The notes: generated from the sequence alone by a model not told the origin. Shown: positions 37,035 through 46,461, numbered from the stretch's first letter. The stretch is DNA of 64,000 nt from Verrucomicrobiia bacterium (GCA_035638075.1 DASRAU010000046.1:101283-165282); one strand, 5' to 3'. Program-made: numbers and translations.

Positions 37035-37063
37035 ACAGTAGCCCCGCGCCGGGGCGAGGTCAA
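37035..37063 (-). promoter_or_regulatory. Putative sigma70-type promoter of dps with embedded palindrome
   Basis: On the minus strand: TTGACC, then a 17-nt spacer, then TACTGT, about 25 nt upstream of the dps start. The spacer contains the inverted repeat GCCCCG-GCG-CGGGGC. Confidence 0.4.
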
Positions 37064-37416
37064 GTCCGCGGGCGGCGCAGGGCGCTCCAGGTCCACAGGG
37101 CGCCGGCGCCGTCGAGGCCGGCCATCAGCAGGACGAAGCGGGGCGCCGCGCCTGAGACGACCAGCGCCGTGAAGACGACGGCGCCGAGAGCGCGCCCCCC
37201 GATGGTCGCGCGGAAAAACGGCGTCACCTCGGCGCGCGCGGCGCTGACGTAGTAGAAGCCGAGGACGAACGACACGACGCCGAGGATCCGCAGCCACGGC
37301 TCCTGCGTCGGCGGCTGGCCGAAGATCGCCAGCATGCCGCCGGGCGAGACGAACAGCCCCGCGCCGAGAAGCGCCAGGTAGGCGCCGAAGGCGAGCACGC
37401 TGCCCGCGGCGCGGCT
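37060..37416 (-). CDS. Small hypothetical membrane protein (3 TM); start uncertain
   Basis: Three hydrophobic segments (SVLAFGAYLALLGAGLFV, ILGVVSFVLGFYYV, ALGAVVFTALVVSGAAP). Proposed GTG 37416 lies 4 nt after the upstream VOC gene stop. Confidence 0.35.
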   Translation of the reverse strand, partial: SRAAGSVLAFGAYLALLGAGLFVSPGGMLAIFGQPPTQEPWLRILGVVSFVLGFYYVSAARAEVTPFFRATIGGRALGAVVFTALVVSGAAPRFVLLMAGLDGAGALWTWSALRRPRT

Positions 37417-37420
37417 CACG

Positions 37421-37951
37421 TCAGCGACGCCGTCCGCCGCGGCGCGGCCGGTACTTTGCGCCGCGGCCGGCGGCACGGCCATGGCGCCGGCGCCGCGCCA
37501 CGGAAGCGCGCGGCGCGGCCGCCCGGCGCCGTTTCGGCCTGGTGCCGGTCGCTTTCTGCGGCGGCGCCGGCTCGATCAGCGCCGCGACCGCTCCGGCCGG
37601 ATCGCGGATGACGGCATAGCGTCCCGCCGAGCCCATCCCCCTGGGGCCGACGAGGACCGACCCGCCGCGCGCGTGGCACTTCGCGACGCTGCGGTCGAGA
37701 TCGGCGACCGTGACGTAGATCAGCCACTGCGCCGGCAGACCTGCGTTCGTTCCGCGCGCGTGGCAGATGCCGGCGATCGGATCCCCGCCGCCGGGCGGGT
37801 GCATGGTGAAGTCGGCGTAGCCGCCCATCTCGACGTCGCCCGCGGTCCAGCCGACGACCTCGCGGTAGAAGTCGCGCACCTCCTGCGCCGCCTCCACCGT
37901 CAGGTCGATCCAGGCGATGGCGCCGATCCTCGGCCGGTGCTTGTCGCTCAT
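37421..37951 (-). CDS. VOC (glyoxalase/bleomycin-resistance/PhnB-like) family protein with Arg-rich C-terminal tail
   Basis: ATG 37951. About 130-aa VOC domain (IAWIDLTVEAAQEVRDFY..., AVIRDPAGAVAALIEP). The 45-aa Arg/Ala-rich tail may be ORF over-run. Confidence 0.55.
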   Translation of the reverse strand: MSDKHRPRIGAIAWIDLTVEAAQEVRDFYREVVGWTAGDVEMGGYADFTMHPPGGGDPIAGICHARGTNAGLPAQWLIYVTVADLDRSVAKCHARGGSVLVGPRGMGSAGRYAVIRDPAGAVAALIEPAPPQKATGTRPKRRRAAAPRASVARRRRHGRAAGRGAKYRPRRGGRRR

Positions 37952-38352
37952 CAGCCGTTCCGGCGCGAGGTGGCGAAGCGCGGCAGGGAATCCCGAAGCT
38001 CGGCCCACGGCAGCATGCGCGAGGCGAAGACATGGTCGTCCGGCGTGATGCTGGACGGATCGTCGAGGCTGCACGTGGTCACGTCGATCTCCCCCGCGTC
38101 GTCATGGTTCTCGAAGGTGAGCGGTGTCCCGCAGGTGGAGCAGAAGGTCCGGGTCACCCCCGGACGCGACGCGAACGAGGCGGCCTGCCCGCGCGTCCAG
38201 GCGAACGCTCCCGCGGGAAACGTGGACCAGGTCACGAACGCGGCGGCGCTCGTCTTCCGGCAGTGCAGGCAGTGGCAGTGGGTCGAGTTCTTCGGCTCGC
38301 CGGTGACCGTGTAGCGCACCGCGCCGCAGAAGCATCCTCCTTCGCGTGTCAT
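37951..38352 (-). CDS. GFA-family (glutathione-dependent formaldehyde-activating / CENP-V-like) zinc protein
   Basis: 133 aa from ATG 38352 (RBS GGAAGGAG). Cys pattern GGCFCGAVRY..HCHCLHCRK..CSTCG. Confidence 0.7.
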   Translation of the reverse strand: MTREGGCFCGAVRYTVTGEPKNSTHCHCLHCRKTSAAAFVTWSTFPAGAFAWTRGQAASFASRPGVTRTFCSTCGTPLTFENHDDAGEIDVTTCSLDDPSSITPDDHVFASRMLPWAELRDSLPRFATSRRNG

Positions 38353-38411
38353 GGCGATGGCTCCTTCCGCGCCGCCGCCCGACCACCTCGCGGGGACCGG
38401 CGCGGCCGGCA

Positions 38412-44232: not shown

Positions 44233-44547
44233 TCAGGAACGGACGGGGCGGGATTCCTTCGCGACGATCATCCGGATGCCTCCGACGATGAGGAGCAGGA
44301 TGCCTCCTCCCATGAGCCCGCCGGCGATGCTCCAGAAGATGGCGCCGAAATCGAGGACCGGAGCCGTGGAGACCCCGCGCACCCAGATGCCGAGCAGCCA
44401 CAGGACCTGGGCGCCGAGCCCGCCCCCGACGATGCCGACGATCGTGTTGCCGATTCCGCCGAGGCCGAACCGGCCCAGCAGGGCGCCCGCGATGTTCCCT
44501 CCGAGCGCGCCGCTCGCCAGCTGGATGAGGACCGCCATCAGGTTCAT
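44233..44547 (-). CDS. GlsB/YeaQ/YmgE-family (transglycosylase-associated) small membrane protein
   Basis: 104 aa from ATG 44547 (RBS GGAGG); Gly-zipper-rich TM helices. Confidence 0.7.
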   Translation of the reverse strand: MNLMAVLIQLASGALGGNIAGALLGRFGLGGIGNTIVGIVGGGLGAQVLWLLGIWVRGVSTAPVLDFGAIFWSIAGGLMGGGILLLIVGGIRMIVAKESRPVRS

Positions 44548-44619
44548 GAAAACCTCCGCCCCTTCCTGTCTAGGCCCGGCCCGCGCCGAAGTCAACGCGC
44601 AGAACTGCGGAAGACGGGG

Positions 44620-45306
44620 TCAGCGCGAGGCGCGGCCGGCCCGACGGCGGCCGACGAGAGCGGCGATGGCGGCGTCCTTCTGGTCCTTCCCCCACGGGGC
44701 GCCGACCGCCTTCCTGAAGGCGTCGACGCGCGCCGTGACGGCGGACCAGGACTCGTGCAGCACGTCCGGCGCGATCTCCTGCAGCTCCTTCTCGGGCACC
44801 GGGACGACCGCCAGGCCGGCGTCCTTCGCGCCCGAGGCGAGCGCATCGCGCCAGAGCACGCCCTCGGCCTTGTGCATGCGGAAGTGCACGGCGAGGATCT
44901 CGTCCGTCGTCCACGACGGCATCGACGTGCCGACCAGGATGGCGCAGGCGACCGGGTCGTGCCCCGCCGCCCGCAGCCGCGAGACGGTCTCGCGCAGTGC
45001 CCGGGCGGCGTTCCGGTGCGCGGCAGCGACGCCGCGATCCACCATCCGCCGCGCTTCCTCGGGCTTCAGGCTCTCGGCGGCGTGGTACGGCGCCTTCACC
45101 CACTCGGATCCCTTCTCGAAGAGATCGAGTCGCCGCCGCTCGACGACCTGCGCGCCGGCGCCATCCAGCTCGCGGGCGCCCGGCCGGCGGAACCCGAGCG
45201 CGACGAGCGCCGCCCAGCCGGAGTGCGCCTTGAGCCCGAGGACGACCTTCGCGCCCGGGGCGCCGGCTGCGGGGGCGCGGGGACCGCCGGCGCGCGCGGC
45301 GCTCAT
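44620..45306 (-). CDS. Hypothetical protein
   Basis: 228 aa from ATG 45306; ATGA overlap with the upstream DUF1697 gene stop. No family recognised. Confidence 0.4.
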   Translation of the reverse strand: MSAARAGGPRAPAAGAPGAKVVLGLKAHSGWAALVALGFRRPGARELDGAGAQVVERRRLDLFEKGSEWVKAPYHAAESLKPEEARRMVDRGVAAAHRNAARALRETVSRLRAAGHDPVACAILVGTSMPSWTTDEILAVHFRMHKAEGVLWRDALASGAKDAGLAVVPVPEKELQEIAPDVLHESWSAVTARVDAFRKAVGAPWGKDQKDAAIAALVGRRRAGRASR

Positions 45307-45845
45307 GCGAGCAGCTCGCGCAGCTTGAGCACCGTGTTCCAGTTGCGCGCCGTGCCGCGCGTCCCCAGCTTCGACTCGATGAGGGCGGTCGTCAGTCGCG
45401 AGCGGCCGACGCCGTCGGGGTAGACGAAGTAGGCGTGCCGCGTGCCGGAGCGCACGCGCTCGCGCCCGCGAATCGCCTCCTCGAGCGCCGTGAAGGCGGC
45501 GGGCTTCGCCGGGGCCTTCAGGCACATGACGAGCAAATGCCCCGGATCCGCCTTCGCTTCCTTTCCGAAGGGGTTGGCCTCGATGAGCTCGTTCCACTCG
45601 TCGGCGCTGCGGACGAAGAAGTCGGTGCGGACCCCGAGCGCCTTGCCGGTTTCGTCCTCGAGGCGCCGCTCGAGCGCGGCCGCCGCCTGTCGCGAGGGCG
45701 CCTCGAAGACCAGGTTGCCGCTCTGCAGGATCGTGCGGACTTGTCTCAGGTCGAGTCTTTCGCACAGCAGGCGCAGATCCGCCATCGCGACCTTGTTGTG
45801 CGCGCCGAGATTCACCGCCCGCAGCAGGGCGACATAGCGGCTCAT
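45303..45845 (-). CDS. DUF1697-family protein
   Basis: 180 aa from ATG 45845. MSRYVALLRAVNLGAHNKVAMADLR...LQSGNLVFE matches the DUF1697 N-terminal pattern. Confidence 0.65.
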   Translation of the reverse strand: MSRYVALLRAVNLGAHNKVAMADLRLLCERLDLRQVRTILQSGNLVFEAPSRQAAAALERRLEDETGKALGVRTDFFVRSADEWNELIEANPFGKEAKADPGHLLVMCLKAPAKPAAFTALEEAIRGRERVRSGTRHAYFVYPDGVGRSRLTTALIESKLGTRGTARNWNTVLKLRELLA

Positions 45846-45846
45846 G

Positions 45847-46461
45847 TCAATGAACGCGGGTCGCGCGGCCTCGGCCGTTCGCCCGGGGGCGCGACGGAGT
45901 CCTGCCGGCTCGCGCACCGGCCGCGCGCCGGCCGCGACCCCGCGCCGCGCGACCAACCGCCGCACGACCGGCGTCGGGCGCGGTCGCGCCGGCGGCGATT
46001 TCCGGCGCCTGCTCGGCGGGCGCCTTCTCCAGTTGTTCGATCGCGCTTTGTAGAAATGCGATCATCCGCTTGCGCTGCGTGGGCTCGGTGGCGCTCCACT
46101 TCTCGGCGCCGGCGCGCTTGTGGGCGATCTTGAACTTCAGCCCGGTCAGCGACGTCGTGTAGGCGTTCGCATCGAGCTTGGTCACGTTCTGGTGCGCCAG
46201 GATGTACCAGTGGTACTCGGTGCCGACGGGAACACCGGACCCCTCCGGCGCATGCCCGACCCGGCGCTTGGTGACCGCGTAATTCACCTGCCAGAGGTCC
46301 GGAGTGATCTTCGTCTCCTTCCAGAACCCCTCGTCGTAGTGCCAGCGGTGGCTCCGGCCGATCTTCATGCCGGTGTACCGCATCCCCTCAAACGTCTTGA
46401 ACTGGTTGTACGACACGCCGGGGTCGCTCTTCTCCTCTCCCTTCTTCTTCTGCGCACTCAT
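45847..46461 (-). CDS. Hypothetical protein with Arg-rich C-terminal tail
   Basis: ATG 46461 with GGAGG RBS. N-terminal 160 aa compositionally normal, then Arg/Ala/Gly-rich tail. Confidence 0.4.
   Translation of the reverse strand: MSAQKKKGEEKSDPGVSYNQFKTFEGMRYTGMKIGRSHRWHYDEGFWKETKITPDLWQVNYAVTKRRVGHAPEGSGVPVGTEYHWYILAHQNVTKLDANAYTTSLTGLKFKIAHKRAGAEKWSATEPTQRKRMIAFLQSAIEQLEKAPAEQAPEIAAGATAPDAGRAAVGRAARGRGRRAAGARAGRTPSRPRANGRGRATRVH

Follow-up and report, generated by a model that had tools for sequence, protein, structure and literature searches.

An overlapping same-strand run of unrelated small genes in a high-GC soil bacterium, read as tandem mini-operons that are probably translationally coupled

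Introduction

Why should a long series of small genes with no evident common function be packed on one strand of a bacterial chromosome so tightly that the stop codon of one gene repeatedly overlaps the start codon of the next? This question is raised by a 64,000-nucleotide stretch of DNA deposited as a Verrucomicrobiia bacterium (GCA_035638075.1 DASRAU010000046.1:101283-165282; the whole stretch is hereafter called the window), in which a run of minus-strand accessory genes, referred to below as the block, occupies about 10 kb. An earlier note on this DNA had offered two readings of the block, namely a coordinated stress or xenobiotic-modification regulon and an unusually compacted accessory region, and the second of these is retained here and the first is not. 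With a probability of roughly two in three, the block consists of native, vertically inherited accessory genes that are arranged in four to six head-to-tail, same-strand mini-operons, are coupled by termination-reinitiation and share no common function; the promoter activity, co-transcription and coupling in this arrangement are predicted from sequence features.

Translational coupling between overlapping genes is already a well-known phenomenon, and the block is a dense and neatly dissectable example of it. Overlapping co-directional pairs typically amount to about 15%, termination-reinitiation at such pairs has been demonstrated experimentally in other organisms, and of 14 overlapping pairs put to the test, 13 proved to be tightly coupled (PMC6728339). 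One study reports that the two products of a coupled pair are often parts of a single complex (PMC10666635), whereas a 2026 preprint reports no such enrichment of complex subunits among coupled pairs (10.64898/2026.09.10.750558).

Gene Content of the Run

A phase plot of GC content at third codon positions (GC3) leaves the reading frames unambiguous and resolves 19 consecutive minus-strand genes, from 47079 down to 36528, which bears out the earlier description of an uninterrupted minus-strand run of about 17 genes (46461-37060) and extends it by one gene at each end, a GNAT gene at 46510-47079 and a Dps/ferritin gene at 36528-37010. The low end of the run is convergent with a plus-strand DUF481 gene (35509-36531), and the high end is divergent from a PALP gene. 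The ratio of nonsynonymous to synonymous substitution (dN/dS) is 0.14-0.52 for all genes that were set against orthologues from two related lineages; therefore, these genes are real and under purifying selection. Database gene calls were taken from an ENA metagenome contig that is 99.97% identical to the window (a Logan contig matches at 100%), and the starts in these calls agree with those noted earlier; the left part of the window falls on another ENA contig, and the calls cover positions beyond 30 kb. The genes are listed below in the order of transcription, with lengths in amino acids (aa), E-values (E) of profile matches and, where relevant, the predicted strength of the Shine-Dalgarno sequence (SD).

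G0, 46510-47079, minus strand: GNAT acetyltransferase, 189 aa, first gene of the run (Pfam Acetyltransf_1, E 2.8e-16; database call of 189 aa; strong SD, -10.3 kcal/mol)
G1, 45847-46461, minus strand: uncharacterised protein, 204 aa, with an Arg-rich C-terminal tail (strong SD GGAGG, -9.3 kcal/mol)
G2, 45303-45845, minus strand: DUF1697 protein, 180 aa, starting +1 nt past the G1 stop (Pfam PF08002, E 3.9e-38, profile positions 1-137 from residue 1; no SD)
G3, 44620-45306, minus strand: uncharacterised protein, 228 aa, with a predicted RuvC-like RNase H fold (AlphaFold2 and Foldseek; at least 2849 homologues); ATGA overlap with G2
G4, 44233-44547, minus strand: Gly-rich membrane protein, 104 aa, flanked by spacers of 72 nt and 91 nt (orthologue of 69% identity in L012; strong SD, -10.2 kcal/mol)
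G5, 43179-44141, minus strand: tandem double GNAT protein, 320 aa (two Pfam Acetyltransf_1 stretches, E 1.8e-34)
G6, 42577-43182, minus strand: ICMT/PEMT-like membrane methyltransferase, 201 aa, GTGA overlap (Pfam ICMT, E 1e-13; NCBIfam isopcys_mtase, residues 14-194)
G7, 41982-42533, minus strand: uncharacterised protein, 183 aa, leading an eight-gene tight run (strong SD, -9.5 kcal/mol; AlphaFold2 model)
G8, 41538-41978, minus strand: VOC/glyoxalase protein, 146 aa, starting +3 nt past G7 (Pfam Glyoxalase, E 1.9e-10)
G9, 41089-41541, minus strand: GNAT protein, 150 aa, GTGA overlap (Pfam)
G10, 40532-41092, minus strand: DUF5946 protein, 186 aa, ATGA overlap (Pfam PF19371, E 4.7e-33)
G11, 39978-40535, minus strand: GNAT protein of the Acetyltransf_3 type, 185 aa, GTGA overlap (Pfam, E 4.3e-18)
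G12, 39679-39981, minus strand: DUF1330 protein, 100 aa, ATGA overlap (Pfam, E 2e-32, from residue 2; SD AAGGAGGAGG, -11.7 kcal/mol)
G13, 39080-39679, minus strand: DSBA-like/HCCA-isomerase-like protein, 199 aa, TGATG overlap of 1 nt (Pfam DSBA, E 1.8e-33)
G14, 38412-39083, minus strand: RluA-family pseudouridine synthase, 223 aa, ATGA overlap, ending the tight run (Pfam PseudoU_synth_2, E 1.6e-30; TIGR00005, E 1e-52)
G15, 37951-38352, minus strand: GFA-family protein, 133 aa (Pfam GFA, E 7.8e-27)
G16, 37421-37951, minus strand: VOC protein, 176 aa, with an Arg-rich tail of about 50 aa, TGATG overlap (Pfam Glyoxalase, residues 12-121)
G17, 37060-37419, minus strand: uncharacterised membrane protein, 119 aa, GTG start, +1 nt past the G16 stop (orthologue alignment)
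G18 (dps), 36528-37010, minus strand: Dps/ferritin-like protein, 160 aa by the database call, final minus-strand gene (Pfam Ferritin, E 4.6e-24)

Pfam and NCBIfam profiles confirm the labels DUF1697, ICMT-like, DUF1330, HCCA-isomerase-like, RluA and GFA that the earlier note had given to members of the run, and a plasmid match of G13 carries the annotation 2-hydroxychromene-2-carboxylate isomerase. Other labels require revision: within 37060-46461 there are four GNAT domains in three genes rather than five in four, the fourth GNAT gene lying just outside (46510-47079), and the VOC proteins number two by Pfam rather than three. The label "YeaQ-like" for G4 finds no hidden Markov model (HMM) support, as no Pfam match appears even at E<=10. 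The supposed Zn-ribbon protein belongs to the family DUF5946. In addition, low-complexity C-terminal tails of 25-55 aa, rich in Arg, Ala and Gly, are observed in G16 (37421-37570), G1 (45847-46010) and G10 (40532-40610); those of G16 and G10 cannot be aligned with orthologues, and the orthologue alignments of G16 stop at about residue 130. These tails look like read-through extensions in a genome that is poor in stop codons.

Junctions and Start Codons

All nine of the stop/start overlaps claimed earlier are present in the sequence, seven as ATGA or GTGA junctions (45303/45306, 43179/43182, 41538/41541, 41089/41092, 40532/40535, 39978/39981 and 39080/39083) and two as TGATG junctions sharing a single nucleotide (39679 and 37951). 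Once the start of G17 is corrected, the 16 junctions within 37060-46461 comprise seven of -4 nt, two of -1 nt, two of +1 nt and one of +3 nt, together with spacers of 43, 59, 72 and 91 nt; the distribution is bimodal, from -4 to +3 nt on the one hand and from 43 to 91 nt on the other, and the tight class accounts for 12 of the 16. In the block, about 9 of 18 junctions overlap; outside it, the window has 43 same-strand junctions, of which about 6 overlap (Fisher p ~0.007, with approximate start positions for the left half).

The correction concerns the last gene of the originally described run, for which a start at 37482 had been proposed in a 140-aa model. Orthologues align only from residues 17-22 of that model and share xTG-AGC-CGC, in which the start is ATG, GTG or TTG; henceforth, GTG 37419 is regarded as the most likely start of G17.

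Spacers, -10-like Boxes and Shine-Dalgarno Contrast

On the coding strand of the 10.9 kb between 36400 and 47300, only five TATAAT-like hexamers are found, each of which lies within a long spacer or at its border, 26-59 nt ahead of the next start. Five lineages, with proteins that have diverged by about 25-30%, share four of these five hexamers in conserved form. The spacer elements are as follows, the last two being candidates read from the gap sequence.

47129-47141, minus strand: AT-rich element TATGGTATAGGAA, a predicted -10 (TATGGT at 47141), 57 nt upstream of G0; at least 10 bases identical in five lineages
46498-46503, minus strand: -10-like TATCTT, 37 nt upstream of G1 and followed by a strong SD; present, like G1 itself, only in this window
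44167-44172, minus strand: predicted -10 TATACT, 26 nt upstream of G5; CCTATACT or CTCTATACT in all five lineages
42574-42579, minus strand: predicted -10 TAGAAT, 41 nt upstream of G7; GCTA[G/A]AAT in five lineages
38353-38416, minus strand: G14-G15 spacer, with GATAAT, then a GC-rich hairpin, then an AAGGAG SD (five-lineage comparison)
44567-44595, minus strand: candidate promoter TTGACT-17 nt-TAGACA before G4
37035-37063, minus strand: candidate promoter TTGACC-17 nt-TACTGT for dps, overlapping the G17 stop; a weaker candidate

The G6 stop codon forms part of the TAGAAT box ahead of G7, and in lineage L098, from which G6 has been deleted, a remnant of the G6 3' end and a TAAAAT box remain. 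Similarly, the GATAAT at 38416, a predicted -10 located 59 nt upstream of G15, contains the TAA stop of G14 and reads GGATAATG in five lineages (TGATAATG in L011). A GC-rich stem-loop follows the RluA stop in every lineage (the window, L011, L012, L098 and L099) with a different sequence each time, and could be a terminator devoid of a U-tract or a structure in the 5' untranslated region of the GFA unit. The candidate promoter before G4 is considered weak because it is not conserved in the relatives. The 13-nt TATGGTATAGGAA, in the divergent PALP/GNAT intergenic region, is near-invariant in five lineages and more conserved than the flanking coding sequence. Inside the tight runs, hexamer and consensus scans returned neither -10-like hexamers nor terminators.

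The distribution of ribosome-binding sites follows the same division. A strong SD (<= -8.4 kcal/mol) precedes six of the seven genes that follow a spacer, compared with two of the 12 tightly joined genes, which are G9 and G12 (Mann-Whitney p 0.009). Moreover, relatives in which the junction before G16, G14, G13 or G17 has been opened show a stronger SD there. This contrast, together with the gain of an SD at opened junctions, lends indirect support to the translational coupling that the earlier note had read from the overlaps.

Proposed Organization into Coupled Mini-Operons

Taken together, the bimodal junctions, the spacer boxes and the SD contrast suggest that the run is divided into four to six mini-operons in tandem. 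The units would be G0, G1-G3, G4, G5-G6, G7-G14, G15-G17 and dps, each presumably opening after a spacer of 43-91 nt that bears an AT-rich -10-like box and a strong SD, and continuing through RTGA (-4), TGATG (-1) or +1 to +3 junctions that mostly lack an SD. A ribosome terminating on one gene would most likely re-initiate on the next, such that most genes behind a leader probably rely on ribosomes delivered by the preceding gene. The products make up no pathway, and the tight packing most likely arose from long co-residence in a stop-codon-poor genome of 70% GC, combined with selection for an intact ribosome relay, rather than from a common function. The notion of a compacted accessory region is also supported by the reality of the genes, their native composition and their unrelated functions, in addition to the 12 tight junctions.

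Several observations weigh against this reading. No convincing -35 partners accompany the conserved -10-like boxes, and a scan with the sigma-70 consensus, which may not be that of the host, yields zero promoters. U-tract intrinsic terminators were not found either, the consensus scan returning two terminator-like sites that both lie inside genes; read-through between units is therefore possible, and the whole run may be partly co-transcribed. At the same time, the SD comparison across relatives is not phylogenetically independent, the overlap rates in the left half of the window depend on approximate start calls, and gene callers favour short overlaps, so that agreement with them does not constitute independent evidence.

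Comparison with Related Lineages

Homologues of G7 and G3 led to four further metagenome lineages (L010/L011, L012/L013, L098 and L099), and the protein identity per gene is 57-89% in two of these four. In all five lineages the block lies between the same flanks, PALP and DUF481, and where the contigs extend, OEP and an RND pump come next. The earlier note had asked whether the run is a conserved block or a mosaic across related genomes, and the comparison revealed synteny in five lineages together with gains and losses of whole genes. For instance, the slot of G1 holds a SAM-methyltransferase in the four related lineages; G4 and dps are present or absent depending on the lineage, G4 being missing from two relatives and dps from all four. 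Insertions in the block among the related lineages include an oppositely oriented short-chain dehydrogenase and two genes placed between RluA and GFA. The ICMT gene G6 is duplicated in L010 and deleted in L098.

These changes can be followed down to the junctions. The -4 and -1 junctions persist across the lineages; RTGA recurs at identical positions in up to five of them, and the only start-codon change is between ATG and GTG. The -4 junction between G2 and G3 is preserved in three of the four related lineages, and the porin inserted at that place in L098 has a -4 junction of its own. In L012 the VOC gene G8 is missing and the junction has been re-sealed at -4. In L098 (10964-11530, orthologous to 40532-41541), G9 has been lost by an in-frame deletion that leaves the upstream -4 junction with the VOC gene intact, and the resulting DUF5946 protein opens with the first ~20 residues of G9 (MTAASGRPMRATDAAAVARMS...).

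Outside this clade of five lineages the gene associations dissolve, as seen for the homologues of DUF5946, G3 and G7. Homologues of DUF5946 in six GTDB genomes have no neighbours in common with the block, and distant homologues of G7 occur in unrelated contexts, some of them archaeal. The DUF1697-G3 pair was also considered as a functional module and was rejected, since the G3 homologues at 79 diverse metagenome loci have no DUF1697 neighbour.

Alternative Explanations

The whole run could alternatively be one coordinated stress or xenobiotic-modification regulon, either as a single polycistron or as several units under one regulator, with enzymes acting together. This explanation would account for the co-direction of all genes, the lack of U-tract terminators and the gene order conserved in five lineages, and it draws on the presence of GNAT, VOC, GFA, DSBA-like and methyltransferase proteins, which are typical small-molecule-modifying or resistance-type families, as well as on a nearby ArsR-AHSA1 pair and RND efflux operon. 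However, the internal -10-like boxes and the leader SDs are conserved, and where a single operon would have one promoter/operator and none inside, multiple internal promoters, which the earlier note had named as counter-evidence, are predicted from the five boxes in the spacers. Nor has the gene set been kept together as a shared function would demand: single genes (G1/methyltransferase, G4, G6, G8, G9 and dps) have been lost, duplicated or replaced between close lineages, and the block neighbours are not kept by the DUF5946 homologues of the six genomes or the G3 homologues of the 79 loci. A search of seven upstream regions detected no shared operator, only uninformative GC-rich k-mers that are nevertheless more numerous than in mononucleotide shuffles, and RluA, Dps and the tubby-like membrane protein are out of place in a set of detoxification genes. 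A coordinated regulon is thus unsupported and unlikely. The possibility that the overlaps are mostly an annotation artefact, with the true starts downstream of the RTGA junctions, is suggested by the long spurious open reading frames in every frame of a stop-poor genome of 70% GC, by the reward that gene finders give to short overlaps, and by alternative starts for G9 (ATG 41517 and GTG 41493, the latter preceded by GGAGGA) and G10 (GTG 41083). It is nonetheless improbable, for the Pfam and NCBIfam profile matches open at residues 1-14 of the proposed proteins, the orthologue alignments extend to residues 1-5 in most genes, and the first base of the same-position RTGA is only A or G even though it falls on a third-codon position, where C is otherwise common.

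Chromosomal integron arrays contain small, unrelated, same-strand accessory genes, and GNAT and VOC proteins feature strongly among their products. An integron-like cassette array, whether degenerate or atypical, or another mobile island, whose genes were captured singly and whose recombination sites have since eroded, would resemble the block in its co-directional small genes rich in GNAT and VOC families and in its presence or absence of individual genes between lineages. Yet the attC cores GTTRRRY and RYYYAAC are both absent from 36500-47100, the 12 tight junctions leave no space for attC, no integrase, transposase or tRNA gene was found among the called genes or by the tRNA scan of the window, and the losses observed are internal deletions rather than cassette excisions. 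The composition is moreover native, the window being about 70% GC throughout and the block 0.70-0.73, with a GC3 of 0.917 compared with 0.932 in the adjacent catabolic cluster. Such an origin is therefore very improbable: an integron array was ruled out by the lack of attC cores and of any intI or recombinase domain among the called genes of the window, a recent genomic island by the native GC and GC3, the lack of tRNA or mobility genes and the same locus in five lineages, and a plasmid-borne or mobile block by plasmid matches that are only short and confined to single genes. Apart from these origins, a known anti-phage defence system was considered and dropped, as none of the ten least-characterised proteins matched a PADLOC model. 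The window was also scanned with Rfam and for tRNA genes, and nothing was found.

Uncharacterised Protein Families

The earlier note had suggested HMM annotation for its three unrecognised open reading frames, which gave no Pfam or NCBIfam match for G1 and no Pfam match for G3. G1 is a member of a very large family, with at least 4552 homologues; among the matches listed, the best are 62-84% identical, and profile searches and a PDB sequence search produced no Pfam, NCBIfam or PDB match for it. Within this family, the N-terminal ~145 residues are conserved and the Arg-rich C-terminal tail is variable. For DUF5946 (G10), a PDB sequence search gave nothing useful.

The G3 family comprises at least 2849 proteins with the conserved motifs KAHSGW, PYHAAE, ILAVHFRMHKAEGVL and PWGKDQKDAALAA. 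The AlphaFold2 model of G3 (mean confidence, pLDDT, 89.6) has RuvC resolvases as its best Foldseek match (E 4e-6, TM score ~0.65). Its first strand reads G-L-K-A-H-S-G at the place that is occupied by the first catalytic Asp in RuvC; because this strand lacks that Asp, G3 is probably not a canonical resolvase. The conserved residues of G3 are rich in His (H28, H75, H141, H145, E148 and D208) and include no obvious DEDD set. As a lineage-specific feature, the G3 of the window has about 20 aa of low-complexity sequence inserted N-terminally. G7 has only 22 homologues and is modelled by AlphaFold2 (pLDDT 88) as a 12-strand beta-barrel around a C-terminal helix, which weakly resembles At5g01750 and the LURP-one/tubby-like folds.

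Surrounding Window and Host

Beyond the block, a 27-kb co-directional cluster on the minus strand (970-28000) appears functionally coherent. Its products are malic enzyme, asparaginase, an Asp-Ala exchanger, a DASS transporter, a lyase of the aspartase/fumarase class, glutaminase, a DcaP porin, an amidohydrolase, the pyruvate formate-lyase-activating enzyme, pyruvate formate-lyase, acetate kinase, Pta, an MFS transporter and serine dehydratase, which suggests fermentative amino-acid catabolism; its junctions are mainly short gaps, with overlaps at about 3-5 of 20. On the other side, at 48100-60500, small accessory genes are again found together, most of them on the same strand (DUF488, DUF1272, an O-methyltransferase, ArsR with AHSA1, VOC, YjbR, DUF4440, DUF7010 and several genes without a Pfam match); overlaps are much rarer in this second zone (about 2 of 20 junctions), parts of which are syntenic in the related lineages.

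Two products of the window are identical to NCBI proteins of a metagenome-assembled genome (MAG) labelled "Verrucomicrobiae bacterium" (locus tags VFC25_18215 and VFC25_18225), and the nearest named homologues of several genes belong to Candidatus Polarisedimenticolia and other Acidobacteriota. Given these conflicting labels, the MAG may be mis-binned or mislabelled; the host is an uncultured high-GC soil bacterium of uncertain taxonomy.

Relation to Known Systems

The block resembles translationally coupled operons (Huber et al. 2019, PMC6728339; reviewed in PMC12548453) in its co-directional ATGA/GTGA (-4) and TGATG (-1) junctions, in downstream genes that often lack a strong SD of their own, and in overlaps that are conserved in relatives. 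It departs from the usual coupled operons in encoding unrelated small enzymes and uncharacterised proteins, in its overlap density of about 50% against a genome average of about 15%, and in that its coupling is deduced from sequence.

As in sedentary chromosomal integron arrays, a long same-strand array of small unrelated genes is seen, with GNAT and VOC proteins prominent and a variable content. Unlike those arrays, the block has no intI, attC or attC spacing, carries a promoter-like box for each unit, is syntenic and vertically inherited, and loses genes by internal deletion. It is also comparable to lineage-specific neighbourhoods without functional linkage, as its order is kept in five lineages (~57-89% protein identity) and lost at a distance; in contrast to such neighbourhoods, its genes are linked with unusual tightness physically, and probably also in translation, which may in itself slow rearrangement.

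Implications

A long overlapping co-directional run in a high-GC genome need not be a pathway or a regulon, and the block serves as a caution in this respect. Conserved AT-rich boxes and SD strength can divide such runs into units without expression data, and the before-and-after pairs found here, namely opened junctions that gained an SD and an in-frame loss that preserved its junction, are usable for studying how coupling constrains the evolution of operons. In addition, the block gives a defined genomic context to three widespread or unusual families of uncharacterised proteins.

A further idea is put forward tentatively, and is considerably more likely to fail than to hold: the RTGA/TGATG chain might act as a "ribosome relay" that constrains the evolution of the array, in that genes could be removed or added only with frame and junction intact. 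Without an SD, a gene may be translatable only when ribosomes read the preceding gene through to its stop. The in-frame deletion and fusion of G9 in L098, the -4 junction re-sealed after the loss of G8 in L012 and the porin that entered L098 with a -4 junction are consistent with this idea. If it is true, the relay, and not function, would keep unrelated, low-demand enzymes together over the long term under very few promoters.

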